From an uncultured Gaiellales bacterium (GTDB taxonomy: Bacteria; Actinomycetota; Thermoleophilia; BMS3ABIN01), in the NCBI GenBank assembly GCA_964497425.1, contig CAZCCR010000002.1, positions 40,336 to 104,335 on the forward strand: a DNA stretch of 64,000 bases, read 5' to 3'. Positions within the stretch are counted from its first letter, which is position 1. The number at the start of each line of letters is the position of its first letter. The position numbers and the translations under genes were made by a program. Shown here piece by piece: positions 5,910 through 54,208 of the stretch. Under the pieces are notes generated by a model that saw only the letters and a list, made by a program, of their open reading frames with translations, made no database searches and was not told where the DNA came from.

Positions 5910-5911
5910 GT

Positions 5912-7360: not shown

Positions 7361-8083
7361 TCAATCCTGCCGGCGCCGGCGGCAGCCGTACAGCACGCTG
7401 CCGACCCGGATGATGGTGGCACCCTCCTCCGCCGCCACCACATAATCGTTGCTGGTGCCCATGGATAGCTCCCGGAAGCTGTGGCGACCCCGCCAGTCAC
7501 GGGCGAGCCTGAAAGAGAGTTCGCGCAAGGCCGCGAAAAGGGGGCGGGAATCTTCGGGGTCTGCCGCCAGCGGCGGCATGGTCATGAGGCCGGTGAAATC
7601 CACCATGGTGAAACTTTCAGCCTCCTCCAGGAAGCGGTTCACTTCGGAGGGAATGATACCATACTTCCCCGGCTCTTCGCCAATGTTGACCTGCAGGAGA
7701 ACTTTTGCTTTAGTATGCGCCCGCCGCTGGATCTCGCGCAAGACGGATATTGATTCCACGGAGTGGATCAGCCGCACCCGCGGCAGCACCTGCCGTACCT
7801 TGTTGCTCTGCAGGTGCCCGATGAAATCCCAGGTGAAGCGGCTGCTAAAACGGTCGTAACGCGCCGCCAGGTCCTGGGCCCGGTTCTCGCCCACGAGCCT
7901 GACCCCTGCCTCCGCCAGCGTCTCCAGCGCTTCCGCGTCCACGTACTTGATCGCCGCCAGCATCTCCACCCCGCCGGGGGAAAGGCCGGCGCGGCGGCGG
8001 GCCGCGTCCACTTCCGCCTCGATACGCTCCCTGTTCTGCCTGATGGCGGCGGCGTCGAGGTCACCCCTGCCGTATCTCACCCG
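7361..8083 (-). CDS. yggS: YggS-family PLP-homeostasis protein (alanine racemase N-terminal fold); start approximate
   Basis: IKYVDAEAL...VRLVGENRAQDL...HLQSNKV motifs. Overlaps the upstream pgeF stop. Confidence 0.8.
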   Translation of the reverse strand, partial: RVRYGRGDLDAAAIRQNRERIEAEVDAARRRAGLSPGGVEMLAAIKYVDAEALETLAEAGVRLVGENRAQDLAARYDRFSSRFTWDFIGHLQSNKVRQVLPRVRLIHSVESISVLREIQRRAHTKAKVLLQVNIGEEPGKYGIIPSEVNRFLEEAESFTMVDFTGLMTMPPLAADPEDSRPLFAALRELSFRLARDWRGRHSFRELSMGTSNDYVVAAEEGATIIRVGSVLYGCRRRRQD

Positions 8084-12267: not shown

Positions 12268-13185
12268 TCTGCCACCTTCCTCAGGCGGATATCACCTAGG
12301 AGCCTCACTTCCGGTTCCAGTACGACCCCGAAGCTCTCGAAGACGCGCCAGCGACACTCATCCATGACGGAGACGACGTCGGCCGCGGTGGCGCCGCCGC
12401 TGTTGATGACGAAATTGGCATGGAGCGGCGAGACGGCGGCGCCACCGCGGCCCACTCCCTTGCATCCGGCGCGGTCCAGCAGTTCACCGGCGGAGGGCCC
12501 TTCAGGCGGGTTGCGAAAGGTGCTGCCGAAAGTACGCACGCCGCGGGGCTGGGACGCCTCGCGCCTGGACAGGTACCGGCGCATCGAGAGCCTGATGGCG
12601 TCCCGGTCCCCCTCGGCCAGCAGCAGCGACACGCGGCTGATCACCGCCCCCGGGGGAAGGGACGATGAGCGATAGCCCAGCCCCAGCTCCGCGGCGTCCA
12701 TTCTCCGTTCCCCGTCCGGAAGGCACACCTCGGCCCACTGCAGGTGGTCGCCGATGCACACCCCGAAGGCTCCGGCGTTCATCGCCACCGCCCCTCCCAG
12801 AGTGCCGGGTATACCCTCCAGCGTCTCCAGCCCGCTGAGGCCCTCCTCCCAGGCCATGCGCGCCACGCGCGGCAGGGAAGCGCCGGCTCCGCACCGGAGG
12901 GCGGTCCCCGACCGCCTGCATTCCTTCAGTCCACCGCCGAGGCGGATCACCACGCCTTCCCAGCCATGGTCGGAGGCCAGCACGTTGGAACCTGCGCCGA
13001 GTACGAACCGGGGCAGACCGCATCCTCGGGCGGCCTCCAGAACCGCCGCCAGGGCGCCGGCGCTCCCGACATCCACTACGTAAGCAGCCGGGCCGCCGCA
13101 GCCGATTGTGGTCATTCGGGAAAACGGGATACCACGCTGGACCCTGCCCCCGGACGCCGACTCCAGTTCGTGGCAGGGCGCCGGC

Positions 13186-27502: not shown

Positions 27503-28360
27503 TCACATCTCGTCCGGCAACCCCTCCAGTTCCGCCATGGAGAAGACGGGACCGTCGACGCAGACGTACTCCGGGCCCACGTTGCACCGTCCGCAAAGGC
27601 CGATGCCGCACTTCATCCGCCGCTCCAGTGTAGTGTATATCTGCCCGGGGGAGAAGCCCATCTTCTCCAGGCTCTCCAGCACGTAGCGGATCATCACCGG
27701 CGGGCCGCAGGTCACGGCGATATTGTTCTCCGGCGACGGGCCCTCTTCCTCCAGCACCGCCGGCACCAGGCCCACGCGCCCCTCCCAGTCGGGATGACCC
27801 GTGTCTATGGTGGTGATGAAATCCACGCCACTGCCCTGCTCCCAGTCGCGACAGTCGTCGAGGTAGCAGATGTCCCGGGGCGTGCGGGCGCCGTAGATGA
27901 GCTGCAGGTCGGCGTAGTCTTCACGGTGGTCCAGCAGGTGCAGAAAGAGCGACCGCAGGGGGGCCATGCCGATGCCGCCGCCGATGACCAGGATGCTCTT
28001 GCCTTTCCATAGGTCCACAGGGAAATGGTTGCCCATGGGCGCGCGCACCGTCACCCTGTCCCCAACGGACAGCTCGTGGATGGCGGTGGTGACCACTCCC
28101 GTCTTCATCACCGAGAACTGCAGGTACTCCCGCTCCGACGGCGGCGAGGCGATGGCGAAGGTGGACTCACCAGCGCCGGGGATGCCCAGCTGACCCGTCT
28201 GGCCCGGCAGGAAGCTGAATGACTGCATCAGCTCCCGGTCCTCGAAGGCCACCCGCAACGACTTGATGTTATGGGTCTCCCTGATGATGTCCAGCACCTC
28301 AGCCGTCTCCGGCGTCAACGGCCGGGAGGCCTCCATGCCCTTCCGCGGGATAGTCGACAT
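27503..28360 (-). CDS. flxA: FlxA-like NAD(P)H:flavin oxidoreductase subunit (FAD/NAD-binding plus C-terminal [2Fe-2S]; AsrB/HydG-like)
   Basis: Ferredoxin-reductase-type FAD/NAD fold, C-terminal CGIGLCGRCNV cluster motif. Last gene of the hdr-flx run. Confidence 0.7.
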   Translation of the reverse strand: MSTIPRKGMEASRPLTPETAEVLDIIRETHNIKSLRVAFEDRELMQSFSFLPGQTGQLGIPGAGESTFAIASPPSEREYLQFSVMKTGVVTTAIHELSVGDRVTVRAPMGNHFPVDLWKGKSILVIGGGIGMAPLRSLFLHLLDHREDYADLQLIYGARTPRDICYLDDCRDWEQGSGVDFITTIDTGHPDWEGRVGLVPAVLEEEGPSPENNIAVTCGPPVMIRYVLESLEKMGFSPGQIYTTLERRMKCGIGLCGRCNVGPEYVCVDGPVFSMAELEGLPDEM

Positions 28361-29379
28361 CAGTACTCACCCGCCCTTCTGATCACGTCGCGGATGTCCA
28401 GCCCCACGGGACAGCCGCGGATGCAACGGCCGCAGCCGGTACAGAGGATCGGCCCCTGGCGTGACGGATAGTAGCTGAACTTGTGGCCGATGCGATTGCG
28501 GTAGCGGTGGGCGATGGTCGGACGCGGGTTGTGCCCCGATGTCTCCAGCGTGTAGAGGAAGAACATGCAGGCGTCCCAGCTGCGACAGCGCTCGCCCTCG
28601 CGCCGGCCGGTCATCTCGTCGAACATGTTGAAACAGTAGCATGTGGGACAGGTGAAGGTGCAGTAGCCGCAGGAGACGCAGCGTGCGGTCACCTCGTCCC
28701 AGAAATCCAGGTCGGCGAATATATCACCCGTCAGCTTCTCCTCGAGCTCCTTCATGGGCACCTGGTCGTTGACCGCCAGCGGGGGCGGCTCCAGGTCGCT
28801 CTCCTCCCAGACTCCCAGCTGAAGCAGCTCCTCCCCGCGGGGACTGGACGCCCGCGCCAGGTAGCCGTCTCCGGCGGGGTATAGGATCACGTCCGACCCT
28901 TCGCTCGAGGCCGTGCCCTCCTCCCATGATGAGCAGAAGCAGGCGGCGTCCGCCTGCGTACAGGCCAGGGTGATCACCGTGAGGCCGCGCCGTCTCGAGC
29001 TGTATCCGGGGTCCTGGTATGACTTGCCCGGCGGTGGGTCGAAGAGGGCGTCCAGCACCGTCAGGGCGCGCGCGTCGCAGACGCGCGCGCCGAAGAGGAA
29101 CCTCTCTCCCTCCCCGTACCGCGGATCCGACAGCTCCAGCCGGTCGCCCTCCTCCGTCATGGCGTAACTGAAATCCATCAGCTTCTCCGTCGCCGGCAGC
29201 ACCAGCTCCTTGGCGGAGAGGGTGGTGAAACGCTCCAGTTCCAGGGAGGCGCCGGGCCGCCAGGGCCGGAAGAGGACCGTACCGGCGGCGCCATCCATCT
29301 GCCGCGGCGCCCAGACCTCTCCGCGGTCCGCCAAGGCGGTGAGTAGCCGGTCGATGTCGTCCGTGGCGATATATCTCAT
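28360..29379 (-). CDS. flxB: FlxB-like iron-sulfur subunit (AsrA/HydB-like, two [4Fe-4S] motifs); start approximate
   Basis: CVSCGYCTFTCPTCYC and CTGCGRCIRGCPVG motifs. Confidence 0.65.
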   Translation of the reverse strand: MRYIATDDIDRLLTALADRGEVWAPRQMDGAAGTVLFRPWRPGASLELERFTTLSAKELVLPATEKLMDFSYAMTEEGDRLELSDPRYGEGERFLFGARVCDARALTVLDALFDPPPGKSYQDPGYSSRRRGLTVITLACTQADAACFCSSWEEGTASSEGSDVILYPAGDGYLARASSPRGEELLQLGVWEESDLEPPPLAVNDQVPMKELEEKLTGDIFADLDFWDEVTARCVSCGYCTFTCPTCYCFNMFDEMTGRREGERCRSWDACMFFLYTLETSGHNPRPTIAHRYRNRIGHKFSYYPSRQGPILCTGCGRCIRGCPVGLDIRDVIRRAGEY

Positions 29380-30305
29380 GATTCCCGGTCCCAGATATCC
29401 TTGTCGGGATCGAAGACGAGCATGGGCGGCCTGGCGCCCAGGTCGGCGCCGGCGCTGTAGCCGAACATCTCCTCGATGGCGCGGTTCTGCTCCTGAAGCA
29501 GCAGCATCAGCGGGATGCCGACGGGACAGGCCCGTTCGCACTCGCCACAGCCCGTGCAGCGGCCGGCCAGGTGGCCTACCCGGATCAGCTGGATCATCTC
29601 CGACTGTTTGGCGTCCACGGCGCCGCCGGCCCAGTGGGGCACCTGCGTCTGCATGATGCAGACATCACGGCAGAAACACATGGGGCAGACCTCGCGGCAG
29701 GCATAGCAGCGGATACAGCGCGAGAACTGCTCCCGCCAGAAGACCCGGCGCTCCCGCGGCGTCAGCGAGTCGAACAATCGGCGCAGAGGGTGTCCCGGAC
29801 CCCCGCCCTCAGTCCTGTCCCCCGCCGCCTCGCCGATGACGTGATCGTAGATGTCCGGGTCAGCTTCCAGGCAGTTGTGGCATTTGGGCTGGATGAACAC
29901 TTCCCGTTCCACCTCCCGGCCGTCCACGGTGAGGGAGGCGCCGCCATCTTCGATGGCGGCGCCGTATCCGTAGCGCCGCCATATCTTCTTGACGTCCAGC
30001 ACGCCGCTACAGCCGACGCCGATGACCTCGACCCTCTCACGCTCCACCTCATGCTCGATTATCAGCTCCACCACGCTTCGTGCGTCGCAGCCCTTGGCGA
30101 CGATCCCCACCCGCTTGTCCTTCAGCCGCGGCAGGTGCACCGCCAGGTTGTGGACGCAGGTGCTGTCGAACAGGGCCCGCTCCGCCTCTTCTCCGTCACG
30201 GAAGCGGGCAGGAGCCGCCACCCCGCTGGCGGCATCGGTCTCCCAGCCCAGCACCAGGTCGGTCCTCTCCAGAACCTTCTTTATGACTTCGACCAGTTCG
30301 CTCAT
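29376..30305 (-). CDS. flxC: FlxC-like iron-sulfur subunit (FrhB/AsrA-like, two [4Fe-4S] motifs)
   Basis: CIRCYACREVCPMCFC and CTGCGECERACPVG motifs. Paralogous to the preceding gene. Confidence 0.65.
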   Translation of the reverse strand: MSELVEVIKKVLERTDLVLGWETDAASGVAAPARFRDGEEAERALFDSTCVHNLAVHLPRLKDKRVGIVAKGCDARSVVELIIEHEVERERVEVIGVGCSGVLDVKKIWRRYGYGAAIEDGGASLTVDGREVEREVFIQPKCHNCLEADPDIYDHVIGEAAGDRTEGGGPGHPLRRLFDSLTPRERRVFWREQFSRCIRCYACREVCPMCFCRDVCIMQTQVPHWAGGAVDAKQSEMIQLIRVGHLAGRCTGCGECERACPVGIPLMLLLQEQNRAIEEMFGYSAGADLGARPPMLVFDPDKDIWDRES

Positions 30306-30781
30306 GGCTCTCGCTCTTCCCTGTCGGCAGGTGCCACAGCCGCTGAATCATCAGCAACCGATCCCTTTGCAGTCCCGGCGTAGTCCAGCTTGCCAAGAGG
30401 CCTGACCGCCTCCGTGAAATCCGCCACCGTCTCGGCCCAGCGCGCCCCCTCGGAGGCGCTGACCCAGGTATAGCGGAAACGTTCCGGCTCGATGCCGTAA
30501 ACCTTCACCATACGCTTCAGCAGCTCCAGCCGCCGGCGCGCGTAGAAATTCCCTTCGTTGTAATGGCAGTCGCCGGGATGGCAGCCGCTCACCAACACCC
30601 CGTCCGCCCCCTCCTGGAACGCCTTCAGCACCAGCAGGGGGTTGACCCGGCCTGTGCAGGGCAGGCGCACGATGCGCATCTCCGCCGGCTGGGCCATGCG
30701 GGAGGTGCCGGCCATGTCGGCGCCGGCATAGGAACACCAGTTACAGAGGAATCCCACCAGCTTTATGCCTTCACCGCTCAC
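30302..30781 (-). CDS. mvhD: MvhD-like (FlxD) [2Fe-2S] electron-transfer protein
   Basis: Motif set LCNWCSYAGAD...RLPCTGRV...GCHPGDCHY is characteristic of the methyl-viologen-reducing hydrogenase delta subunit family that partners HdrA. Confidence 0.75.
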   Translation of the reverse strand: MSGEGIKLVGFLCNWCSYAGADMAGTSRMAQPAEMRIVRLPCTGRVNPLLVLKAFQEGADGVLVSGCHPGDCHYNEGNFYARRRLELLKRMVKVYGIEPERFRYTWVSASEGARWAETVADFTEAVRPLGKLDYAGTAKGSVADDSAAVAPADREEREP

Positions 30782-32739
30782 CTGAGCGCCTCCGTCACTT
30801 CCTGGATAAGCTGGTTGTCAGTATAGCCCCTCAGTGATATCACCGATGGCGGGCAGGCCACGTTGCAGAGCCCGCAGCCCTGGCAGAGAGACTCTATCAC
30901 CACCGCCACGTGGCGGCCGTCCCGCAATCCCTGTTCCTCGATGGCATGGTAGGGGCAGACCTCGCGGCATTTGAAACAGCCGATGCAGCGCATGTGGTTG
31001 ACCTCGGCGATCATGGGGCTGGTCTCCAGCTCGTCGCGGGAGAGCAGACCGATCACCTTGGCCGCGGCGGCGCTGGCCTGGGCGACGGTCCCGGGGATAT
31101 CCCTTGGCCCCTGGCAGGCTCCGGCCAGGAAGATACCGCCGGTAGTGGTCTCCACCGGCCGCAGCTTGGGATGGCTCTCGGAGAGGAAGCCGTATCCGTC
31201 GTAGGGGATGTTCAGCTTCTGCGCCAGACCCGTCACCCCTTCGGCGGCGTCGAGCCCGGTGGCCAGCACCACCAGGTCGGCTTCCACTTCCACGTTCTCA
31301 CCCGCCAGCGTGTCCACGCCCATCACCACCAGCTTGCCGTCCCGTGGATAGATCTTGCCCACCCGTCCCCGCAGGTAGATGGCGCCCGCTTCCTTCTGGG
31401 CCCGCCGGTAGAACTCCTCGTAGCCCTTGCCGCCGGCGCGCACGTCCATATAGAAGACGTATGATTGGGAATCGGGGATGTGCTCCTTTGTCAGGATGGC
31501 CTGTTTGGCGATGTACATGCAGCCCACGTTACAGCACAGCGGCCGTCCGATGGACTCGTCCCGGGAACCGACGCAGGAGAGGAACACGACATCTTTCGGC
31601 TCGGCCCCGTCCGAGGGCCGCCGGATATGGCCGCCGGTCGGGCCCGAAGCGGAGAGCATGCGTTCATACTGCATGGAAGTGATGACGTCCGGGTAGAGGC
31701 CGCCGCCGTAATGGGGATAGGCCTGCCGCCAGTCGAACAGCTCATACCCCGTCGCCACCACGATGGCGCCGAACTTCTCCGTGTGCAGTTCGTCCTCCTG
31801 TTCGTAATCCACCGCGTCCGCGGGACAGACCTTCTTGCAGATGCCGCACTTGCCCTTTATGAACAGGCGGCAGTGTTCCTTCCTCAGGGATGCCACCAGG
31901 GGCACGGCCTGGGGGAAGGCGATGGAGATGGCCTTCGATTCGCCAACGCCGGCGTTGAACTCGTCCGGCGCCGGGTTGGGGCACTTCTGCTCGCAGATCT
32001 GGCAGCCGGTGCACTTCTCCTCGTCGACGCAGGTGGCCTTCTTCCTGATGTCCACCTCGAAGTTGCCGATGTAGCCGCGCACCTGCTCCACCTCGCTGTT
32101 GACCATCAGCCTGATGTTCTCATGATGTTTCACTTCCACCATGCGGGGGGTGAGGATGCAGGACGAGCAGTCCAGGGTGGGAAAGGTCTTGTCCAGCCGC
32201 GCCATGTTGCCGCCGATGGTCGGCCCCTTCTCCACCAGGGTGACGGGCATGCCGGCGTCGGCGATGTCCAGCGCCGCCTGGATGCCGGCGACGCCGCCGC
32301 CGATGATCAGCACCTCGCCCGCCACCGGCACGCGGCTGGTGAACAGCGGTGTCTGCTCGCGCACCTTGGCCACGCCCATGGCCATCAGGTCGATGGCCTT
32401 CTCCGTCGCCACGTCCATGTCCGAATGTATCCAGGAGCAGTGCTCGCGGATGTTGACCATCTCCATCATGAAGGGGTTGATGCCAGCCTGGGCGACGGTG
32501 CGCTGGAAGGTGGTCTCGTGCATCCGCGGCGAGCAGGCGGCGATCACCACCCGGTCCAGGGCGTGCTTGTGCGCCGCCGCGACGATGGTGCGCTGTCCCG
32601 GGTCCGAACATGTGTACTGGATGGACTCGGCATGGACCACATCGCGCAGTGACATGGCGGCCTTCACCACCCTGTCGGTGGAGACTGTGGCGGCGATGTT
32701 GGAGCCGCACTGGCAGACGAAGACACCTATGCGCATCAG
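30778..32739 (-). CDS. hdrA: Heterodisulfide reductase subunit A-like flavoprotein (start at MRIGVFVCQCG; the ORF-track N-terminal extension overlaps hdrB)
   Basis: FAD GxGxxG (IIGGGVAGIQAALDIA), several CxxCxxCxxxCP ferredoxin motifs, ~650 aa. Confidence 0.85.
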   Translation of the reverse strand: MMRIGVFVCQCGSNIAATVSTDRVVKAAMSLRDVVHAESIQYTCSDPGQRTIVAAAHKHALDRVVIAACSPRMHETTFQRTVAQAGINPFMMEMVNIREHCSWIHSDMDVATEKAIDLMAMGVAKVREQTPLFTSRVPVAGEVLIIGGGVAGIQAALDIADAGMPVTLVEKGPTIGGNMARLDKTFPTLDCSSCILTPRMVEVKHHENIRLMVNSEVEQVRGYIGNFEVDIRKKATCVDEEKCTGCQICEQKCPNPAPDEFNAGVGESKAISIAFPQAVPLVASLRKEHCRLFIKGKCGICKKVCPADAVDYEQEDELHTEKFGAIVVATGYELFDWRQAYPHYGGGLYPDVITSMQYERMLSASGPTGGHIRRPSDGAEPKDVVFLSCVGSRDESIGRPLCCNVGCMYIAKQAILTKEHIPDSQSYVFYMDVRAGGKGYEEFYRRAQKEAGAIYLRGRVGKIYPRDGKLVVMGVDTLAGENVEVEADLVVLATGLDAAEGVTGLAQKLNIPYDGYGFLSESHPKLRPVETTTGGIFLAGACQGPRDIPGTVAQASAAAAKVIGLLSRDELETSPMIAEVNHMRCIGCFKCREVCPYHAIEEQGLRDGRHVAVVIESLCQGCGLCNVACPPSVISLRGYTDNQLIQEVTEALR

Positions 32740-33617
32740 GCCACCCCCGCCAGCCATCTGTCCAGGTCGGGCCTGACCGCCAGGGCGTCCAGGCCCAGCT
32801 CCTCGGGAGGGATGCCCAGGGCCAGGCCGATGGCCTGGCTGAAATAGAGCACCGGCATCCGCAGCGAGGCGCCGTAGGCGTAATTGATCTGCCCCTGCCG
32901 CAGATCCAGGTTCTGGTGACAGAGGGGACAGGCGGTGACCAGGGCGTCCAGCCCCGTGGACATGGCCACGTCGATGATGCGCCTGCTGGCCTCCAGCACG
33001 ATATCCTTGCGCGCCAGTCCCATGTAGGAGCCGCAGCATTCGGTCTTGAAGGGGAAATGGGGCACCTGGGCGCCCGTGGCCTCCAGCAGCGGCCGCATCT
33101 TGCGGGGGTCCCGCGGACTGTCGAAGCCCATGATGTCCGCGGGCCTGGTCAGCAGGCAGCCGTAATAGGCGCCCAGGCGCACGTTCCGCAGCCGCTCCCC
33201 CGCCCGCCGGCGCAGCTCCTCCGGCGTCACTTCCCGGTTGAGCATCTGCACGATGTTGAGCACCTCGGTCCGGTAGCGCACCTCTTCCCCCAGCAGTTCG
33301 CTGGTCTGCTCCCGGATCCGCTCATCGCCCGCTATCTTGTACTGGGCGTACTTGAGACGGTTGTAGCAGCCGGCGCAGGGGGCCACCACAGCGTCATGGC
33401 CGGCGCCGGCGATATGCAGGTTGCGACCGGGAAGGAGCACGCCCAGGGTCTCCGCCTTGTGATGGGGCGCCGGCGACGCTCCACAGCAGTTCCAGTCCTG
33501 AAGCTCGTCCAGCCGCACGCCCAGCGCCTCCGCCACCTTGCGGAAGGAGATGTCGTATTCCATGGCGCTGCTCTTGAGGGAGCAGCCCGGGTAATATGAA
33601 TAGGGCGTCTTCACCAC
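32736..33617 (-). CDS. hdrB: Heterodisulfide reductase subunit B-like (two CCG domains)
   Basis: YYPGCSL...CCG and CCGS...CPLC motifs. Confidence 0.85.
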   Translation of the reverse strand: MVKTPYSYYPGCSLKSSAMEYDISFRKVAEALGVRLDELQDWNCCGASPAPHHKAETLGVLLPGRNLHIAGAGHDAVVAPCAGCYNRLKYAQYKIAGDERIREQTSELLGEEVRYRTEVLNIVQMLNREVTPEELRRRAGERLRNVRLGAYYGCLLTRPADIMGFDSPRDPRKMRPLLEATGAQVPHFPFKTECCGSYMGLARKDIVLEASRRIIDVAMSTGLDALVTACPLCHQNLDLRQGQINYAYGASLRMPVLYFSQAIGLALGIPPEELGLDALAVRPDLDRWLAGVA

Positions 33618-37435: not shown

Positions 37436-38749
37436 TCAGGCCACCCTGATCTCGGTATCCTGGGCGCCGCTGAGGCGCCTTACCGCCCTCTCGAAGACGT
37501 CGATGTCCGGGCCTATGGCGACCGCTGAAAGCTTGTCCGGGTCGTAGAGGCGCTGCGCCACCTGCTGAACGTCGGCGGCGGTGACGGCGTTTACCTTTTC
37601 AATGATCTCATCCAGCGTCAATATCTCCGAGCCGGTCACCGTCAGCTTGCCCAGGCGGCTCATGCGGCTCTGGCTGGTCTCCATGCCCAGGACTATCTTG
37701 CCCTTGGCGCTCTCCTTGGCCCGCCTCAGCTCTTCCCCGCTGATACCGTCATCCATCAGCGAGCGCAACTGGCCGCTGACTATGCCCGTGACCTCCTCGA
37801 CGCTGTCGCCGCGGCAGCCGAAATAGACGCCGACCAGGCCGGAGTCGGAATAGAAGGAGGCGTAGGAGTATATCGAATAGACCAGGCCGCGCTTCTCCCG
37901 CACCTCCTGGAACAGGCGTGAACTGGCGGTGGAGCCGAGGATGCTGTCGAGGATGGAGACGGCGTACTTGTCCTGGGAGCCGCGGGGCAGCCCCAGGCCG
38001 CCGAAACAGACGTGGTACTGCTGGGTGTCCTTCTGGTAGAAGGCGGCGCCGCCGGAGCCGCCCGCCGGCGGCTCCGCCGGCGCCGCCGTCTGTGCCGCCG
38101 CCGGGTCGCCGTTTGCCCCTTCCAGATGTACGGCGGCCAGCGAGGCCAGCTCCTCCTGCTCGATGTTTCCCGCCCCGGCTATCACCAGGTTGGGCAGGGT
38201 GTAGTGGTCGGAATGATATCGGCGCAGCTGCCCGGCGCTGACCGCGCCGATTATCTCCGCCGTACCCAGCACGCTCTTGCCCAGGGGGTGGTCGCCGAAG
38301 ATCGCGCTCGTGAGGTAATCGGCGATGAGCTCGCTGGGAGAGTCCTCATACATGGCTATCTCCTCCACCACCACCTCGCGCTCCTGGTCCACCTCCCTGA
38401 AAGCGGGCCTGAGCACCATGTCCGCCATCACCTCGAAGGCCTCCTCCAGGTGCTCATCCAGGAACCGGGCGTGGACCACTGTGTATTCGCGGGCGGTGGC
38501 GGCGTTTATGTCGGCGCCGATGGAGTCGAAGAGTTCGGCTATCTCCGTAGCCGGGAAGCGGTCGCTGCCCTTGAACAGAAGGTGCTCGATGAAATGGCTG
38601 ATGCCGCTCTCGCCCGGCCGCTCGTGGCGCGAACCCGAACCCAGCCAGAAGCCAAGGGAGATGGAGCGGACCGCCGGCAGCTTCTCGCTGACGACCCGCC
38701 CGCCCCCATCGAGCTCTGTCAGCTTATACTTCTGGATTTGGGTCGACAA
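37436..38749 (-). CDS. M16-family zinc peptidase (insulinase-like)
   Basis: Inverted zinc motif HFIEHLLFKG (HxxEH) near the N-terminus, ~437 aa, two M16 halves. Confidence 0.8.
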   Translation of the reverse strand: MSTQIQKYKLTELDGGGRVVSEKLPAVRSISLGFWLGSGSRHERPGESGISHFIEHLLFKGSDRFPATEIAELFDSIGADINAATAREYTVVHARFLDEHLEEAFEVMADMVLRPAFREVDQEREVVVEEIAMYEDSPSELIADYLTSAIFGDHPLGKSVLGTAEIIGAVSAGQLRRYHSDHYTLPNLVIAGAGNIEQEELASLAAVHLEGANGDPAAAQTAAPAEPPAGGSGGAAFYQKDTQQYHVCFGGLGLPRGSQDKYAVSILDSILGSTASSRLFQEVREKRGLVYSIYSYASFYSDSGLVGVYFGCRGDSVEEVTGIVSGQLRSLMDDGISGEELRRAKESAKGKIVLGMETSQSRMSRLGKLTVTGSEILTLDEIIEKVNAVTAADVQQVAQRLYDPDKLSAVAIGPDIDVFERAVRRLSGAQDTEIRVA

Positions 38750-40925
38750 CCTTCAGTCCGATGCGCTGCTTGCCCCGGTCTTCACGGACCTCGATGACCT
38801 CGACCTTGACCATCTGGCCGCGCTTGACCACGTCTTCCACCTTCTTGACGCGGTGGTCCGCCAGGTTGGAGATGTGCGCCAGGCCGTCGACACCCCGTTT
38901 CAGTTCCACGAAGGCGCCGAAATCGGTGATCTTGACCACTTTGCCGACGATGATGTCGCCTTTCTCCACGTCCTTGGTCAGGTCGGTGATGCGCTGGATG
39001 ACAGCCTCGGCGCTGGCGCCGTCCGTGGAACAGATGAAGACGGTTCCGTCCTCTTCCACGTCGATGGAGACATCGAATTCCTCCACCATACCGCGGATGG
39101 TCTCGCCGCCCTTGCCGATGATGGCGCCGATCTTGTCCGGGTTGATCTGGATGGTGAAGATGCGCGGCGCGTACTCCGAGAGCTCGGCGCGCGGCTCCGG
39201 CAGGACTTCCAGCATCCTTTCCAGCACGAACTCGCGGCCGCGTTTGGCCTGGTCCAGGGCCTCGGCCATGATCTCGGGGGTGATACCCTCCTTGATCTTC
39301 AGGTCCATCTGGATGGCGGTCATACCCTCGCTGGTCCCGGCCACCTTGAAGTCCATGTCGCCCAGGTGGTCCTCGATGCCGGCGATGTCCGTCAGTATCA
39401 CGTAATGGCGGTCCACGTCCTCCGAGCCGCATTTGAGACAGCGGCGCAGGAAGACACCCTCATGGCCGCAGGAGCGGCAGGTGCTGCGCACCACAAGGCC
39501 GATGGCTATTCCCGCCACCGGACGCTTGATCTGGACGCCCGCGTCCATCAGCGCCAGGGTGGAACCGCAGGTGCTGGCCATGGATGATGAACCGTTGCTC
39601 TCCATGATCTCGCTCACCAGACGGATGGTGTAGGGGAATTCCGTTTCGTCCGGGATCATCGGCAGCAGGGCCTTCTCCGCCAAGGCGCCGTGGCCGATGT
39701 CGCGGCGCTTGGGACCGCGCATGAACCCGGTCTCGCCCACGGAGAACGGCGGGAAGTTGTAGTGATGTATATAATGCTTGCTCTCCTCCAGGCCCAGTCC
39801 GTCTATTCGCTGTTCGTCTCCGACGGAACCCAGGGTGAGCAGGGTCATGGCCTGGGTCTGGCCGCGGGTGAACAGGGCCGAGCCGTGGGTGCGCGGCGCC
39901 ACGCCGACTTCGCAGCTGATGGGCCTGATCTCCTCGGCGCCGCGGCCATCGGGACGACGCTTGTCCACAGCGATGCTGCGCCGCACCACGTCCTTCTCCA
40001 CGGCCTTGAGCATGGAGGTGACCTCGCCCACCATATCCTCCGGCGAGTCGTCATTCACCAGCTCCTTGCGCACATCATTGCGAATCTCCTCGATGCGGTC
40101 CGACCGCTCCTGTTTATCCGTGATCAGATTGGCATCTTCCAGCCTGGCACGGGCCAGTGACTCGACCTTGCCGTATAGTTCCTGGTCCGGCTCAGGCTCC
40201 TCGAAAGTCCATTTCTCCTTGCCGGCCGCCTGGCGCAGCTCCTCCTGCAGACGGCAGAGCTGCCGGATCGGTTCCTGGGCCAGCCTGACCGCCTCCATCG
40301 CCGTCTCCTCGCTGACCTCGTCGCCGCCCGCCTCCAGCATCAGGATCGAATCCTCGGTGCCGGCGATGACCATGTTCAGATCGGACTCGGGGAACTGGGG
40401 CAGGATCGGATTTATCACCAGTTCGCCACCCAGCCGGCCCACCCTGACGGCGGCGATAGGCCCCTGGAAGGGGACCTCCGAGATGGTAAGCGCCGCCGAG
40501 GCGCCCAGCAGCGCCAGCACGTCGTAGGCGTTCTCCTGGTCGGTGGAAAGGATGGTGGCGATGATCTGGACCTCGTTGGAGAAGCCCCTGGGGAAGCGCG
40601 GCCTCACCGGCCGGTCTATCAGCCTGGCGGTGAGGATGGCCTTCTCGCTGGGACGAGCCTCCCTCTTGATGAAGCCGCCGGGGATCTTGCCGGCGGCGTA
40701 CATCCGCTCCTCGATATCGACCGTGAGTGGGAAGAAGTCGATGCCTTCCTTGGGCTCGGTCCTGGCCGTGGCCGTGGCCAGCAGCATGGTGTCACCGCAA
40801 CGGACCTGTACCGCGCCGTTTGCCTGGGCGGCCAGCCGGCCGGTCTGGAGGGTGATGGTCTTTCCGCCTATCTCGGCGCTTTTCTCGACTACCTGTTTCT
40901 CTAGTACCTGATTTTTCTCTGACAA
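38724..40925 (-). CDS. pnp: Polyribonucleotide nucleotidyltransferase (PNPase)
   Basis: Two RNase PH-like domains, KH and S1 domains at the C-terminus, 733 aa; sits downstream of rpsO. Confidence 0.95.
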   Translation of the reverse strand: MSEKNQVLEKQVVEKSAEIGGKTITLQTGRLAAQANGAVQVRCGDTMLLATATARTEPKEGIDFFPLTVDIEERMYAAGKIPGGFIKREARPSEKAILTARLIDRPVRPRFPRGFSNEVQIIATILSTDQENAYDVLALLGASAALTISEVPFQGPIAAVRVGRLGGELVINPILPQFPESDLNMVIAGTEDSILMLEAGGDEVSEETAMEAVRLAQEPIRQLCRLQEELRQAAGKEKWTFEEPEPDQELYGKVESLARARLEDANLITDKQERSDRIEEIRNDVRKELVNDDSPEDMVGEVTSMLKAVEKDVVRRSIAVDKRRPDGRGAEEIRPISCEVGVAPRTHGSALFTRGQTQAMTLLTLGSVGDEQRIDGLGLEESKHYIHHYNFPPFSVGETGFMRGPKRRDIGHGALAEKALLPMIPDETEFPYTIRLVSEIMESNGSSSMASTCGSTLALMDAGVQIKRPVAGIAIGLVVRSTCRSCGHEGVFLRRCLKCGSEDVDRHYVILTDIAGIEDHLGDMDFKVAGTSEGMTAIQMDLKIKEGITPEIMAEALDQAKRGREFVLERMLEVLPEPRAELSEYAPRIFTIQINPDKIGAIIGKGGETIRGMVEEFDVSIDVEEDGTVFICSTDGASAEAVIQRITDLTKDVEKGDIIVGKVVKITDFGAFVELKRGVDGLAHISNLADHRVKKVEDVVKRGQMVKVEVIEVREDRGKQRIGLKVVDPNPEV

Positions 40926-41614: not shown

Positions 41615-42748
41615 GTGCCGATCACGTATCAGAAGCCGGGGGGCAATACCAGCGGGCTACTTTTCGGGGGAAAGGTGGGAGGTACTTCAAAAGGCGGCGG
41701 TGCGGCATCCGTTCAACGGGCGCAGGCGCCGGACAAGGGCGTCATCTCATCTTGTCTGCCGGGGCTGCTGCTTTGCGCCGCGGTGGCGCTGCCTTCTTTC
41801 GAGCTCTCCCGTTACAACCCGTCCCTGGACGCCCTCGCCCTTTCGCTGATCCTGGGCATGGTGTTGAGGAACGTACTGGGACCGGGCACCGCAGTGACCC
41901 CGGGCGTACGCCTGGCCAGCGCCGTCTTCATCCCGGCCGGCATCATCCTATACGGCACCAGGCTCGATTTCCTGGTGTTCACCGGTCTGCCGGGCTATTC
42001 CATCATCGTCGTCATCGCGGCGTTCACCATGTTCTTCATCGCCATCCTCTCGCTCTCCCACCTGATGGACGTGAACCGGAGTACGGGCCTGCTCATCGCC
42101 TGCGGCTCCGCCATCTGCGGCGCCTCGGCCATCGCGGTGCTGTCACCGGTGGTGAGGGCGCGCGAACGCGACATGTCCATGGCGCTTATCGTCACCACTG
42201 TGGCGGGGCTTACCGGCGCCATGATCTATCCCATCCTGGGCGACTGGTTCTCCCTGCCGGAAAAGGTCTACGGCATCCTCTGCGGTTCCACGCTGCAACA
42301 GACGGGGATAGTGCGCCTTGCGGCTTCGCACATGGGAACGGAAGCGCTGGAGTTCGCCATTCCGGTGAAGATGCTGCGCATCGCCATGCTGGCCCCCACC
42401 GCTGTGGCCCTCGCCACTAGCGCTTCGCTGCAGAGGAACGCGGGCCCGGGCGACGACCGTTCCGCCAGGGCGCTGCAGGCGCTGAAGCGGGCCTGGTTCA
42501 TACCGATCTTCGTGGCTGTGGCGCTGGTGTTCTCCTTCGCGGGCGGAGCAGTGGAGATCCGCGAGTCCTTCAAGCCTTTCGCCACCATCGCCCTCTCAAT
42601 GGCGCTGGCCAGTATCGGCCTCAGGGTCGACCTGGGCTCCATCAGGGCCATGGGCTCACGGCCGCTGCTGCTGGGCTTCGCCGGCTGGGCGCTGGTGGGT
42701 TCCGTAATACTGGCCGCGCTGGTCATACTTGCGGGAGCGCTCAATTGA
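41615..42748 (+). CDS. YeiH-family (UPF0324) putative sulfate-exporter-type membrane protein; true start probably downstream of 41615
   Basis: About ten TM helices, glycine-rich repeated halves typical of the YeiH/Cons_hypoth698 family. Confidence 0.6.
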   Translation: MPITYQKPGGNTSGLLFGGKVGGTSKGGGAASVQRAQAPDKGVISSCLPGLLLCAAVALPSFELSRYNPSLDALALSLILGMVLRNVLGPGTAVTPGVRLASAVFIPAGIILYGTRLDFLVFTGLPGYSIIVVIAAFTMFFIAILSLSHLMDVNRSTGLLIACGSAICGASAIAVLSPVVRARERDMSMALIVTTVAGLTGAMIYPILGDWFSLPEKVYGILCGSTLQQTGIVRLAASHMGTEALEFAIPVKMLRIAMLAPTAVALATSASLQRNAGPGDDRSARALQALKRAWFIPIFVAVALVFSFAGGAVEIRESFKPFATIALSMALASIGLRVDLGSIRAMGSRPLLLGFAGWALVGSVILAALVILAGALN

Positions 42749-44703
42749 AAAGAAGCATCTTCCAGAAGACCTTGCTCATATTCATGGTCGTGGCCCTCGT
42801 GCCGGCGACCATCATCGTTCTCAGGAGCACCAACATATATTCACAGCATCTGGGCGAGTTGGTGGAGGAACAGTCCCTCACGCAGGAACAGGCGGACAGG
42901 CAGCTGGGCGAGATAAGGACCCAGGCGCTGGTCTATGGCGGCTACGGCGGCGCCATCGCCCTGATACTCGGTTATTTCTTCGCCGCCAGCCTGGTCAATC
43001 CCATCCGTTCGCTGCAGCAGGGAGCGCGCCAGATAGGGAACGGCGAGCTGGACTACAGGGTGGAGAGCGGGTCCGAAGACGAACTGGCGGAACTGGCGGA
43101 TTCCATCAACCAGATGGCCGCCTCGCTGCAGACCCGCGAGTCAGAGCTCAGACAGCACAGCCAGGACCTCTCGCTGCTGTACCAGTTCGCCCACGACATC
43201 TCCGAGTCCCATCACCTGAACGAGCTGCTGTCAAAGGCCCTGAACAAAGCCCTCGAGATATCCGGGTCGGAGCAGGGCTGCGTCTACCTCGTCGATGGCG
43301 AGGGCAGCCTGGAACCGGCGCTCTGCAGTTACAGCGACAAGGCGCCGGCAAAGAGGCAGACCTCCACCTTCGACAGCGCCGCCATGTCCGCCAGCGGCTC
43401 CGGTGAGCCGGTTATCGTCAGGTACGACGGCGGCGAGACAGAGATGGCGGTGGCCTGTGTCGCCCTGGTCTATGAGCAGAACGTGCAGGGCGCCGTCTGT
43501 GTCGCCGGAAAGGCCTCGGCCTTCACGGAAGACACCATGAAACTGCTGTCGGCCATCAGCAGCGAGACCGCGGTCGCAATAGAGAACAGCCGGCTGCTGG
43601 ACCAGCTGGAGACGCAGAACCGCGAGCTTTCCCGCGCCACTGAGGAGATAGCCAGCCTGATCAAGCGGGCGGAGGAGAAGGAGGGTTTCGGTATCCGCTA
43701 CCAGAACCCGAACCTGGCCAGGTGCTGGGAGATGAAGGAATGCACCCAGGAGCAGTGCCCTTCATACATGTCCGAAGACCTGCGCTGCTGGCAGGTGGCT
43801 GGAACCCATTGCGGCGGAGAAGTACAGGGCGTCTTCGCCCAGAAGCTTGGCCGTTGCGAGAAGTGCGAGGTGTTCCTGCATGCCTGCCCCGACCGCCTGA
43901 CGGTGCTGGGCGAGACCTTCAACAACATGATGGCCGCCCTGGAGCAGGAGGTGCTCGACCGTGAGAAGCTGCAGCAGCAGCTGTTCAAGTCGACCAAGCT
44001 GGCAGCCATCGGCGAACTCGCCGCTGAAGTCGCCCATGAGATCAACAACCCCATGACCGGCATCCTCGCCAACGCCATGCTGATGAAGAGAGCGGACCTT
44101 GACCGTGGGGAGCTGCAGCGCAAGCTTGAAGTGATCGAGAGCGAAGCCTACCGCACCAGGGATATCGTCCACAACCTGCTGGACTTCGCCCATGAAGAGA
44201 GCCAGTTCCGTCCCGAGCCCGTCGACCTGGCGGCTATCCTCGACCAGACGGTGAGGGTGGTGGAGCAGCAGGCGGCCCTGGCATCGGTGACGATCGAGAT
44301 GGAGCTGGATGAGAGCCTGCCGCAGGTAGTCGTGGACGCCAACCATATCAAGCAGGTCTTCCTCAATATCATCACCAACGCCATTCACGCGATGCCCGGC
44401 GGCGGCATGGTCAGGATCAGCGCCAGGGAGGGCGGCGGCAACGGAGATCAGCGGTTCCTGCGCGTCGACCTGAGCGACACCGGCACAGGCATGGACGAGG
44501 AGAAACAGGCGCGTATCTTCGACCCCTTCTTCACCACCAAGCAGGAAGGAAAGGGCACGGGGCTGGGGTTGGCCGTGTCCCAACGCATCATCAGTGAGCA
44601 CGGCGGTGAGATAACGGTCAAGTCAGAGCCCGGCAAAGGCTCCACCTTCAGCGTCACCCTGCCCGCGAAGACCGCCGGCGGCGAACAGCAGGATGCTGCC
44701 TGA
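42745..44703 (+). CDS. Sensor histidine kinase: TM-HAMP-GAF-(8-Cys insert)-HisKA-HATPase; no adjacent response regulator
   Basis: HAMP after the first TM, GAF-like region, H-box AHEINNP, N/G1/G2 boxes (ITNAIHAMPGGG...DTGTGM...GTGLGL). Cys-rich segment CWEMKECTQEQCPSY...CWQVAGTHCGG...CEKCEVFLHAC. Confidence 0.85.
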   Translation: MKRSIFQKTLLIFMVVALVPATIIVLRSTNIYSQHLGELVEEQSLTQEQADRQLGEIRTQALVYGGYGGAIALILGYFFAASLVNPIRSLQQGARQIGNGELDYRVESGSEDELAELADSINQMAASLQTRESELRQHSQDLSLLYQFAHDISESHHLNELLSKALNKALEISGSEQGCVYLVDGEGSLEPALCSYSDKAPAKRQTSTFDSAAMSASGSGEPVIVRYDGGETEMAVACVALVYEQNVQGAVCVAGKASAFTEDTMKLLSAISSETAVAIENSRLLDQLETQNRELSRATEEIASLIKRAEEKEGFGIRYQNPNLARCWEMKECTQEQCPSYMSEDLRCWQVAGTHCGGEVQGVFAQKLGRCEKCEVFLHACPDRLTVLGETFNNMMAALEQEVLDREKLQQQLFKSTKLAAIGELAAEVAHEINNPMTGILANAMLMKRADLDRGELQRKLEVIESEAYRTRDIVHNLLDFAHEESQFRPEPVDLAAILDQTVRVVEQQAALASVTIEMELDESLPQVVVDANHIKQVFLNIITNAIHAMPGGGMVRISAREGGGNGDQRFLRVDLSDTGTGMDEEKQARIFDPFFTTKQEGKGTGLGLAVSQRIISEHGGEITVKSEPGKGSTFSVTLPAKTAGGEQQDAA

Positions 44704-44759: not shown

Positions 44760-45716
44760 TCAATCCTCCCGGTTCACCGCGAAGCCGTCATAGGCCCGGG
44801 CGGCGGCGATATCCTTCTTTATCTGCTCCACCAGGGCTTCCGGCCCTTCGAACTTCATCTCCCCCCGCAGCCTTTCCAGGAAATCGACACGCACGTCCAT
44901 GCCGTATATGTTGCGGTCGAAATCGAGGATATGGGCCTCAATGCGCATCTTCTGGTCACTGTCGTCATCGGTGGCGCAGAAGGTAGGGTTGTGGCCGATG
45001 TTGACCAGGCAGGCGTATGGCTGTTTGCCGACGAATAGGTCGGCCATGTAGACGCCCCTGCCGGGGAAGATGCAGTCGACGCGGGCATCGATGTTGGCCG
45101 TGCGCACCCCCAGGGTGCGCCCGCGTTTGTCGCCGTGTACCACCCTGCCGTGGGTCGAGGGGGGCCGGCCCAGTATCTCCCGCACCTCATCGAGCCTGCC
45201 GTCCATCAGCGCCTTGCGGATGCGCGTGGAAGAGATGGGCTTCCCGCCCGCCTGGACAAGCGGCACGGCGGTCACCTCCATGCCACTCTCCCGGCCGTAT
45301 TCGGCAAGATAGCCTACATCGCCCTCGGCCTTGAAGCCGAAACGGAAGTTCTCCCCGACTATCACGTGGATGGCCCCGAGATGGGAAGCGAACAGCATGT
45401 CGCAGAATTCCCGCGGGGGCATGCGGGAGAACTCCCGCTCGAAGGTGATGATCAGCAGCTCATCCACGCCCAGGTCCTCGATCAGGTCCGTCTTGATGTT
45501 GAGGGGGGTCAGTATGGGCGGACATTTCTCGGGAGCGATCACCGACAGCGGATGCGGATGGAAGGTCATCACCATGCTGATGGCGTCCTCGGCCGCCGCT
45601 GCCTCGACGGCGTCGCTGATTATACGCTGGTGGCCGATATGCACCCCGTCGAATGTGCCGATGGCGACCACGCGCCTGCCATCGGGCACCTCATCCATGC
45701 TGCGGAATATCCTCAT
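44760..45716 (-). CDS. ribF: Bifunctional riboflavin kinase / FMN adenylyltransferase (start at MRIFRSM)
   Basis: N-terminal GTFDGVHIGH nucleotidyltransferase motif, C-terminal riboflavin kinase domain. Confidence 0.9.
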   Translation of the reverse strand: MRIFRSMDEVPDGRRVVAIGTFDGVHIGHQRIISDAVEAAAAEDAISMVMTFHPHPLSVIAPEKCPPILTPLNIKTDLIEDLGVDELLIITFEREFSRMPPREFCDMLFASHLGAIHVIVGENFRFGFKAEGDVGYLAEYGRESGMEVTAVPLVQAGGKPISSTRIRKALMDGRLDEVREILGRPPSTHGRVVHGDKRGRTLGVRTANIDARVDCIFPGRGVYMADLFVGKQPYACLVNIGHNPTFCATDDDSDQKMRIEAHILDFDRNIYGMDVRVDFLERLRGEMKFEGPEALVEQIKKDIAAARAYDGFAVNRED

Positions 45717-52322: not shown

Positions 52323-53783
52323 TCAGGGAGGCGGTTGCGGGAACCATATCTCGCCGCCCTGCTTGTCGAGGCAACTGGCGAACAGGGCGGTATGGAAGTG
52401 ACTTATCCCCGGCGGGACCATGAACCTCACCGTGAAATCGTGGCAGCCCCCGACCTCGATCCTGTCCGCCGGCGGCGGCAGCTCTCCGGCGACCTGTACT
52501 GAATCCGGGGTCAGCTGCACTTGCCTGACGGCCACATCCAGTGCCGGGACATCCCCGTAGTTGGATATGCCATAAGTGACGGAAAGCATCCCGGCCTGGT
52601 AATCCATCATGTCCCGCCAGAAAACCGACCGGATGGACAGACCCAGGACAGGCTTCACCCCCATGCTGTCCCACGGCGCCAGCTCCGCGCTGTAGATGTC
52701 CCAATCACCGTTGCGGTTGTCCTGCCAGACGACTGTATTGCCGTCTATGTCGGGGTTCACCTGGTCCCCCGAGGCGCCACACAGCAGTTGTTCCTGCCCC
52801 GTATCCAGATCCCTGACGTAGAGGTCCCATTCTCCGACCCAGCGGCCCTGGTCGTCCAGATGCCCGGCCCGGTTGTCCTGATACACAAGGATGTTACCAT
52901 CGGTCACAGGGTTGATCTGGTCGCCGGGCTCCTGGACCACGGGCGAACCCGGTGTGCCCGGTACGGCCTGGAAGATGTCCCATGTCTGTCCCGGCTCATT
53001 CAGCTTCTGTTGATAGATGACCCGGTCATCATCGATATCCGGTTCGCCACGCTGGTAGAGGCTGTCACCGCTTGAGGACATACCACCGCCCACCTGGGTC
53101 AGATAGGACCAGCTGCCGTCGCTCAGATCGTAATCGACCAGGAGCGGCTCGTAATACCTTGTACTGTAGCCACGCATCCTGACCCAGACAGCATGTTGCC
53201 CTTCCACATCCGGGTCGTAGCGCATCCCGTTACGCGAATAGCTGTCCAGCTTCCTGCTGCGTCCGCTTGTGAAATCCACGCGGCTGATAGTGCTGCCCCC
53301 GTCCCGTTCACCGGTGACCGCATAAGCGCCGGACAGCGACAGGTCCGATGCCGGTGTCGAGGTCACGCAGCTCCGGGCGCCGTCCGCCATCGACCGGCGG
53401 CAGACCCTCGAGTCGCTGTCCTGCCAGGCGACGAAGCCTTCGTCCAGGTCGGGACCGGCCCATACCCCCGGGCCATACACGGGTACTTCTCCCCCGTTAC
53501 CGCCCAGTTGCCTGGTGACCACCCATCCATCCGGAGAGCGCCCCAGGTCGTTGAACGCGACCACGCCGCCGTCCACTGCAGGGGCGACCTGGTCACCAGG
53601 CGATGTCGTCACCGGTGACTCCAGGACCCTCCAGGGCCCGTTGCCATCGGCTGTGGCAGGGCCTGTCTGCATCAACAGCAGCGGAGCGACACAGCAGATC
53701 GACGCTACCGCCAGCCATAGACGTTTCAGCAACCATGACTTCCCCCCGGTTGGACCGGCCCCTCTCTCCCGTCCCCCGGCCAT
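52323..53783 (-). CDS. Secreted PD40/TolB-like beta-propeller repeat protein with a C-terminal beta-sandwich-like domain
   Basis: Signal peptide (KSWLLKRLWLAVASICCVAPLLLMQTGPATA), then repeated D-Q-x-N/P-x-x-D-G-x-x-V/L-V/Y-x-D-x-R-x-G-x-W-D-I/L-Y units. Confidence 0.65.
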   Translation of the reverse strand: MAGGRERGAGPTGGKSWLLKRLWLAVASICCVAPLLLMQTGPATADGNGPWRVLESPVTTSPGDQVAPAVDGGVVAFNDLGRSPDGWVVTRQLGGNGGEVPVYGPGVWAGPDLDEGFVAWQDSDSRVCRRSMADGARSCVTSTPASDLSLSGAYAVTGERDGGSTISRVDFTSGRSRKLDSYSRNGMRYDPDVEGQHAVWVRMRGYSTRYYEPLLVDYDLSDGSWSYLTQVGGGMSSSGDSLYQRGEPDIDDDRVIYQQKLNEPGQTWDIFQAVPGTPGSPVVQEPGDQINPVTDGNILVYQDNRAGHLDDQGRWVGEWDLYVRDLDTGQEQLLCGASGDQVNPDIDGNTVVWQDNRNGDWDIYSAELAPWDSMGVKPVLGLSIRSVFWRDMMDYQAGMLSVTYGISNYGDVPALDVAVRQVQLTPDSVQVAGELPPPADRIEVGGCHDFTVRFMVPPGISHFHTALFASCLDKQGGEIWFPQPPP

Positions 53784-54208
53784 TCCCGGGGAATACCGAC
53801 TGCTGCTCTCTTCATACCCCTTGCCTTCCCGACACGGAACAGGAAAAACTTCACCACCGATCCTCCGCCGGGAATCACCGGCCACGTCCCCATGGACAAG
53901 CCACCCCTCAACCACTCTCCGCAACCGCATCTCTCCTCGCTTTCACCGCTCGCACTTCCCGCTTGCAGACATCATCGCCATCAATACTTCAGAACCTATT
54001 TGACCCGGGCCGCATCACCTCACAGGATTCACTTATCTCCGATGTCAGCTACTCTATCAACTGAGAAAAAAAAATTAATCGTACACTGGTATGATTCGCT
54101 CCCGGAAAAAGTCTTATATCAGAGTTTGTATCGCATGTTTAACGCTGGGGCCCGGCGGCTATCCTTTATTAAGCGGATTAACGAAGAACAGCGGCCTGGA
54201 GAGGGACT

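Follow-up and report, generated by a model that had tools for sequence, protein, structure and literature searches.

What does a histidine kinase read with eight cysteines placed just ahead of its phospho-accepting domain? The question is raised by a sensor kinase gene in a 64,000-nucleotide stretch of DNA (hereafter the window) from an uncultured Gaiellales bacterium of the Thermoleophilia, which spans positions 40,336 to 104,335 of the forward strand of contig CAZCCR010000002.1 in assembly GCA_964497425.1. An initial annotation, made from the letters of the window, had placed this open reading frame (ORF) at 42745-44703, had read its domains in the order HAMP, GAF and kinase, and had singled out an insert with eight cysteines between the GAF and DHp domains as a possible metal-binding or redox-sensing module. 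The ORF list and Pfam bear out the frame and the domain order. By its match to a curated model, the cysteine-rich segment is a genuine member of the two-CW family (NF045718), a family that is already catalogued and functionally unstudied. On the structural model and the profile comparisons given below, the description that fits it best is a HAMP-like hairpin of helices with a seven-cysteine knot of about 55 residues in the place of the connector.

The family assignment is carried by the segment itself. When it is compared alone (70 residues) with the NCBIfam model NF045718 "two-CW domain," it scores 40.3 bits (E 3.1e-10) over model positions 2-75 of 80, and the curated cutoff of the model is 35 bits. 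The segment has two CW dipeptides, C327-W328 and C348-W349, and all of the cysteines that are invariant in the family are present. In the peptide of residues 321-384 the cysteines stand at positions 327, 333, 338, 348, 356, 371, 374, and 381, which matches exactly the spacing CX5CX4CX9CX7CX14CX2CX6C reported at the outset. A Pfam scan gave zero matches on residues 290-420 of the kinase, and the core belongs to no Pfam family; weak matches to DUF3624 (E >= 0.004) lie below the cutoff and are uninformative. The core has no PDB relative by sequence or by fold, and no paper on the two-CW domain was found in the searched literature. The statement that this is not a well-characterized input domain of histidine kinases therefore holds. 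Its novelty holds in part: the domain is uncharacterized as a kinase input, although it had already been modeled as NF045718 and is widespread. The profile search and structure prediction that had been suggested as checks gave, respectively, the NF045718 match and a model made of a helix, the cysteine core, and a long helix.

Conservation distinguishes seven of the cysteines from the eighth. In 145 to 212 domain copies, taken from representatives at 50% identity, six cysteines are found in every copy (100%) and C356 in 97-98%, a pattern that at the level of sequence demonstrates strong purifying selection on these seven residues. All eight are present in 26 orthologs or ortholog fragments (P0002-P0027, 49-71% identity); in the PAS-GAF kinases P0028-P0071, the first seven are kept and Arg, His, Ile, or Thr takes the place of C381. 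Position 381 is a cysteine in 14-22% of the family (14% of 145 copies), and it is only among the direct orthologs that this cysteine is constant. Thus, the eight-cysteine unit first described is retained in the orthologs, whereas only seven cysteines are invariant across the family and C381 is specific to this orthogroup. An eighth cysteine is found in ~45% of representatives, either at position 340 (in "CPC") or at 381 and rarely at both. Cys340 accompanies the loss of Trp328, being present in 36 of 43 sequences without this Trp versus 12 of 157 with it, counts that are not phylogenetically independent. Other positions are almost as constant: W349, R347, G353, T354, G362, K367, E390, F392, and N393 are 93-99% conserved in the 145 copies, and the last three, which lie in the helix that follows the core, reach 94-99%. 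Position 355 varies in the same copies (Phe 48%, His 21%, and Tyr 19%), H355 being lineage-specific. Among orthologs, mean identity is highest of the whole protein in the cysteine core, at 73%, with 61% in the catalytic domain and 42% in the GAF domain. Furthermore, all 23 orthologs have C238 (43456-43458), C252 (43498-43500), and C381 (43885-43887), where the PAS-GAF paralogs have Ala, Gly, and Arg, respectively; this trio of cysteines, peculiar to the orthogroup, reaches from the GAF domain to the end of the two-CW core. Covariation by mutual information with average product correction (212 sequences) was dominated by subfamily structure and is not used here as contact evidence.

The relationship to HAMP emerges from an AlphaFold2 model and from profile-profile comparison. 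The model, which covers residues 296-418 and was built from a 70-sequence alignment (predicted local distance difference test, pLDDT, 83; predicted template modeling score 0.76), contains a helix at residues 297-310, an irregular core, and a single long helix that runs from residue 384 to the end of the fragment (model residues 89-122). The short helices in the core each begin at one CW motif, and the loop at 355-366 is the only poorly predicted part. When hhalign was run against a profile of 59 canonical HAMPs from which two-CW regions had been excluded, residues 377-403 aligned to HAMP positions 32-58 (probability 89%, E 2.3e-6). The aligned half, AS2, shares a conserved Glu and the motif "FNxM" (in "DEig.La..FN.M," with hydrophobic heptads). 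In 82 of 84 representative kinases the spacing between the AS2 Glu and the phospho-accepting His falls into heptad classes (39/46/53, 41/48, and 59/66), as a rigid helical connection of the AS2 helix to DHp would predict. Together, alignment and model identify the second helix as a homolog of HAMP AS2 that continues toward the DHp helix bearing H431. Between the two helices, the connector, with the seven-cysteine core, is ~70 residues long (311-383) versus ~14 residues with a Gly in HAMP, and the profile-profile comparison detects no homology of the AS1 half to HAMP. The insert between GAF and DHp was thus correctly located, as Pfam confirms, although it would be the connector of a HAMP-like hairpin and not a free-standing unit.

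The two-CW domain extends far beyond this kinase. When 1.84 billion cluster representatives (50% identity clusters) were searched exhaustively with HMMER, 1120 proteins matched at E<=1e-3, of which 433 also passed E<=1e-10; the first count may include false relatives such as P0238, and the second, safer one puts the domain in at least 433 clusters. P0238, with 13 matching stretches, was rejected as a relative because it is a WD40-repeat protein in which "VWDLTQCxxxxCPS" loops give rise to a false match. It is a curious protein in its own right: residues ~770-1400 of this STAND-like sequence hold 13 WD40 repeats, each with a "VWDL(T/S)QCxxxxCPS" loop similar to the opening third of the two-CW motif, so that the propeller is regularly decorated with cysteine pairs.

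The architectures of 77 representatives include HisKA in 49, PAS in ~23, a receiver (REC) domain in 21, canonical HAMP in 17, GGDEF, MCPsignal, and dCache in 6 each, and Hpt in 5. These Pfam assignments establish the two-CW domain as a portable module that stands directly upstream of kinase, GGDEF, or MCP outputs and is not confined to kinases. Among the closest relatives outside Thermoleophilia are Nitrospirota proteins of ~560 residues; both of those sampled (L028 and L045) are 2CW-GGDEF cyclases, as is one Omnitrophota relative of 332 residues. In P0121-P0125, P0173, and P0205, two-CW modules occur in tandem pairs before GGDEF or kinase domains, each module with its own AS2-like helix, an arrangement that recalls poly-HAMP arrays. 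The domain thus resembles HAMP (PF00672; Af1503, Aer2 poly-HAMP, and HAMP-DHp fusions) in standing immediately before DHp, GGDEF, or MCP outputs, in its AS2 homology, in its heptad-phased linker to the His, and in its tandem arrays; it is unlike HAMP in its enlarged seven-cysteine connector, in its AS1 half, and in the failure of the Pfam HAMP model to recognize it. As to hosts, 394 two-CW copies were confirmed when each GTDB species, represented by one genome, was scanned with a narrow pattern that was derived from an 8-sequence alignment and is biased to the "RCWQ[VI]AG / T[HFY]CGG" subfamily. The 79 best loci come from metagenome-assembled genomes (MAGs) of Thermoleophilia and other Actinomycetota, from Nitrospirota/Thermodesulfovibrionia, and from a few Desulfobacterota, Deferribacteres, Omnitrophota, Chloroflexi, and Planctomycetes, and most of them were obtained from groundwater, deep-mine, or sediment samples. 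Protein searches with the domain alignment and with a consensus of the "CPC" subfamily yielded just 3-4 short proteins. Host taxonomy draws on the genome scan and on one cluster look-up, by which two-CW proteins appear to belong mainly to anaerobic subsurface lineages.

The kinase that carries the domain here is, from its predicted segments (table 1), a membrane-anchored class I enzyme with two transmembrane (TM) segments and a short outside loop, followed by HAMP, GAF, two-CW, DHp, and catalytic domains. Only ~35 residues separate the predicted TM1 from TM2, and TM2 leads straight into HAMP. The class I assignment follows from a HisKA domain with a phospho-accepting His together with HATPase_c; this His, H431 (nucleotides 44035-44037), lies in the H-box "AHEINNP" and is invariant in 23 of 23 orthologs. 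In P0001, a 100% identical public copy whose source is a Thermoleophilia MAG or metagenome, the annotated start is Met14, which gives 639 residues. We prefer the TTG at 42745 because the orthologs conserve an N-terminal "(K/R)SIF(R/Q)KT" motif upstream of Met14 and a full-length TM1, which the Met14 start cuts (42745-42783); there is no further start codon in frame upstream of the TTG.

Table 1. Coordinates in the window of the kinase gene, its predicted segments, and the genes on either side.
Feature	Position	Strand	Details
YeiH-family membrane transporter gene	41615..42748	+	PF03601; TIGR00698 (E 3e-56); directly upstream, overlaps kinase start
Sensor histidine kinase ORF	42745..44703	+	652 aa, TTG start; overlaps yeiH stop codon by 4 nt
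Predicted TM segment 1	42769..42825	+	~residues 9-27; Kyte-Doolittle peak, hydrophobic stretch kept in orthologs
Predicted TM segment 2	42928..42990	+	~residues 62-82; hydropathy peak, conserved "GYG..(I/V)AL(I/V)LGYFFA"
Canonical HAMP	42976..43131	+	residues 78-129; PF00672, E 8.7e-16
GAF	43210..43584	+	residues 156-280; PF13185, PF01590, PF13492; holds the ortholog-specific invariant C238 and C252
AS1-equivalent helix before the cysteine core	43633..43674	+	residues 297-310 of the HAMP-like hairpin
Two-CW cysteine-rich core	43705..43896	+	residues 321-384; NF045718, 40.3 bits; AlphaFold2 pLDDT 78-83
HAMP-AS2-like helix "DRLTVLGETFNNMMAALEQ..."	43897..43995	+	residues 385-417, continuous toward DHp; hhalign and AlphaFold2
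HisKA/DHp	44011..44202	+	residues 423-486; PF00512, E 4e-13
HATPase_c catalytic domain	44335..44670	+	residues 531-642; PF02518, E 6.8e-29
ribF	44760..45716	-	downstream of kinase, convergent

The genomic context links this kinase to a transporter. The yeiH and kinase genes lie on the plus strand inside an otherwise minus-strand cluster, nusA-infB-rbfA-truB-ribF ... rpsO-pnp. Two loci with orthologs of 51-57% identity (L001 and L002) have the same layout, yeiH and the kinase gene being 1 nt and 4 nt apart, and PF03601 is found in orthologous loci; altogether, yeiH is directly upstream of the kinase gene in 11 of 14 distinct ortholog loci. YeiH and RibF had both been named correctly as neighbors, although YeiH is not merely one, as the overlap of the two genes and their shared synteny make plain. 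The arrangement indicates that yeiH and the kinase gene are translationally coupled and syntenic in orthologs and that their pairing is not incidental. At the three loci without yeiH the kinase gene still lies between pnp/rpsO and ribF, and in one of them (L003, kinase at 5002-6999) an unrelated 137-residue ORF is upstream of it instead. At L015 a frameshift or an assembly error divides the kinase between two ORFs. Promoter, terminator, and Rfam scans around the yeiH-kinase operon gave nothing above background.

The initial annotation had also called the kinase an orphan, and this view can be extended to the whole window, in which neither a phmmer search with CheY (E<=10) nor a 102-sequence REC hidden Markov model (HMM; E<=10) detects a receiver domain. 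No receiver gene adjoins any of the ortholog kinases either, and the response regulator of the kinase is presumably encoded elsewhere. One candidate is provided by a Thermoleophilia paralog, a PAS-GAF-2CW kinase of ~770 residues without C381, which is always followed 0-10 nt behind by a single-domain receiver of 136 residues, at 15 loci (L020, 4669-7399, with the receiver at 6992-7399; L005, L012, L013, L016-L019, L021-L024, L026, L039, and L064). The paralog and the YeiH-linked orphan kinase co-occur in the same Thermoleophilia assemblies. Their DHp specificity positions are alike without being identical: +7 T, +8 G, and +11 G are common to both groups, and +12 is S/N in one and Y in the other. 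It is possible, judging from these residues and from co-occurrence, that the 136-residue receiver is a partner shared with the orphan kinase.

How might such a module work? We propose that the seven cytoplasmic thiolates hold a metal centre, for which one or more Fe-S clusters would be favored and a Zn2-type site would be the alternative. A site placed after TM2, HAMP, and GAF would be cytoplasmic, so that its thiols would be reduced and metal binding favored. Oxidation or loss of the centre, or its attack by ligands such as O2, NO, or reactive sulfur species, would change the packing of the helices; the helix that leads to H431 would in turn shift its register or rotate, in the manner of HAMP, and the kinase output would switch. 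In the YeiH-linked orthogroup the physiological signal may be sulfite or reactive-sulfur stress, a speculative and, we think, reasonable guess that is based on the coupling to YeiH, a putative sulfite/sulfate exporter, and on the additional cysteines C238, C252, and C381. As a whole, with the YeiH/sulfur link included, a two-CW metal centre that switches the kinase from within a HAMP-like relay is the best explanation we can offer, and we hold it with moderate confidence. The preference for Fe-S over Zn is a slight one, to which the bias toward anaerobes, the aromatic residues flanking two of the cysteine ligands, and a conserved Cys-Pro weakly point. A bolder version of the proposal, which we consider unlikely to hold in full, would make two-CW a class of cofactor-bearing transmitters in which the HAMP connector has turned into a seven-cysteine metal-cluster cage, and would make the YeiH-coupled kinase a sulfite or reactive-sulfur sensor that works with the exporter. 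Such a cage could accommodate either a Zn2Cys7 site or a 3Fe or 4Fe cluster, to which position 340 or 381 might optionally contribute an eighth ligand.

Several observations weigh against this proposal. The cysteine spacing corresponds to no canonical Fe-S motif, the Pfam Fer4 families give no match, and seven invariant cysteines are an odd count that fits neither one simple Cys4 site nor two. With regard to the HAMP-like hairpin, Pfam HAMP (PF00672) scores at residues 78-129 only and not on 290-420, and the AS2 half is the only part that aligns. AlphaFold2 confidence is lowest in the loop around C356, which is the most conserved one. The anaerobe bias comes from a sample that is itself biased, by the narrow pattern and by restriction to the best 80 of 394 matches. 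Finally, yeiH is absent at three ortholog loci (L003, L004, and L027; none within 5-6 kb), and the YeiH link is irrelevant to most two-CW members and silent on the generic ligand.

Known cysteine-rich folds were considered as templates for the core. A ferredoxin-type 4Fe-4S domain of the Fer4 clan was rejected, as the CxxCxxCxxxCP motif is absent and only one core in 70 gives even a weak match to Fer4_17 (E 0.27). In the YeiH-linked orthogroup only, C356-x14-C371-x2-C374-x6-C381 resembles the WhiB motif (C-X14-22-C-X2-C-X5-C); a WhiB-like reading was likewise rejected, given that the last spacing is 6 and not 5, that C381 is confined to the minority of the family noted above, and that Pfam Whib does not match. 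A reading of the core as CZB was also rejected.

The most serious competitor accepts the metal and denies it a sensory role. The seven cysteines would then form a structural Zn module, either Zn2Cys7 with a bridging thiolate or ZnCys4 plus ZnCys3-X, that stiffens an enlarged HAMP-like transmitter; two-CW would only relay, and sensing would fall to the GAF domain or to the TM region together with YeiH. The CxxC knuckle (C371-x2-C374), the scarcity of regular secondary structure, and the size of ~55 residues are all features of typical Zn knots, and a Zn site is in keeping with the lack of an Fe-S motif and of a Fer4 match. A relay function also agrees with the fact that two-CW is always in the transmitter position beside the output domain, as HAMP is, and that many members have separate PAS, GAF, or Cache sensor domains. 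However, a structural Zn module leaves the strong bias toward anaerobic lineages unexplained, and the family offers no conserved His or Asp as the missing ligand of a second tetrahedral site. Moreover, the 2CW-GGDEF proteins of 332-408 residues have little beyond the module and the output, which suggests that the module is the input. On balance, we regard the structural Zn module as rather unlikely.

A metal-free thiol switch, in which reversible disulfides, persulfides, or S-sulfonates change the helix packing as in control of the ArcB/RegB type, is in our view very unlikely. Such a switch would be served by a cysteine-rich module in a reducing compartment, by the YeiH/sulfite context, and by the extra orthogroup cysteines C238, C252, and C381, and sulfite attacks disulfides chemically. 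However, seven invariant cysteines combined with invariant Gly, Thr, and Arg in tight turns far exceed what the known switches need and form a pattern that would be typical of metal ligation, and an irregular core with short helices only is unlikely to fold without metal. That the segment is a chance cysteine-rich or low-complexity linker without function, for which the absence of a Pfam family is the sole argument, has a negligible probability: at the cysteine frequency of the 29 other ORFs in the window (1.3%), at least 8 cysteines in 55 residues would be expected with P ~6e-7, the segment matches a curated HMM, its cysteines are invariant in hundreds of diverged proteins, and it is the best-conserved part of the kinase, which also answers the reservation, raised with the initial annotation, that the cysteines might be unconserved or the region a linker of low complexity.

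The preferred reading, a metal centre in a HAMP-like relay, has parallels of principle in other kinases. NreB is a sensor kinase with a PAS-borne [4Fe-4S]/[2Fe-2S] cluster (PMC13478379), and the Chloroplast Sensor Kinase CSK has a GAF-borne [3Fe-4S] cluster (PMC6949291). All three would have a cytoplasmic cysteine cluster in a histidine kinase as the proposed reporter of redox state, O2, or sulfide; the likeness is an analogy of principle only, in that the cysteine ligands of NreB and CSK lie inside PAS and GAF folds, whereas those of two-CW lie in a separate module without a PDB fold relative. The two-CW cysteine core has no sequence or fold homology to PAS or GAF. In Salmonella, YeiH is the main determinant of sulfite-stress resistance and is under a LysR regulator (PMC12880088). 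The YeiE-YeiH system and the locus described here are alike in that a YeiH-family protein is genetically coupled to a dedicated regulator gene, and they differ in that the Salmonella regulator is a divergent, sulfite-binding activator of the LysR type, whereas here it would be a membrane histidine kinase co-translated downstream of yeiH. The kinase also departs from a classical paired two-component system, since it has no adjacent response-regulator gene. In relation to NF045718 itself there is no difference at the domain level; the YeiH-linked orthogroup adds C381 and His355, which most members lack.

Other features of the window deserve mention. The PNPase (pnp, 38724..40925, minus strand) contains a zinc-ribbon-like CxxC-x9-CxxC insert, "CRSCGHEGVFLRRCLKC," at residues 483-499 (39429-39479, minus strand), and L001 and L002, two of the orthologous loci, encode PNPases with the same insert. 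At 27503-33039 on the minus strand there is an Fe-S flavoprotein cluster encoding a protein with NAD_binding_1 and DHODB_Fe-S_bind (285 residues), one with Fer4_22 (393 residues), and one with Pyr_redox_2 and Fer4 (753 residues); its resemblance to AsrAB or sulfhydrogenase subunits and HdrA suggests an anaerobic and possibly sulfur-linked metabolism, in line with the bias of two-CW hosts toward anaerobes. Three long ORFs with high G+C content at third codon positions have no Pfam match at E<=1e-5: 4572-6728 (plus strand, 718 residues), 11056-12675 (plus strand, 539 residues), and 52323-53930 (minus strand, 535 residues).

HAMP domains are regarded as passive relays. If the proposed metal centre is real, a widespread HAMP variant would, through a seven-cysteine metal site of its own, act as a sensor at the final step of transmission, and kinases, diguanylate cyclases, and chemoreceptors of anaerobes would read the cytoplasmic redox, O2, NO, or reactive-sulfur state at the last relay. 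A function assigned to two-CW, which so far has a curated HMM and no Pfam entry, structure, or paper in the searched literature, would extend to hundreds of signaling proteins. For Thermoleophilia, the conserved yeiH-kinase operon would provide a physiological handle on this function, namely sulfite or reactive-sulfur stress.

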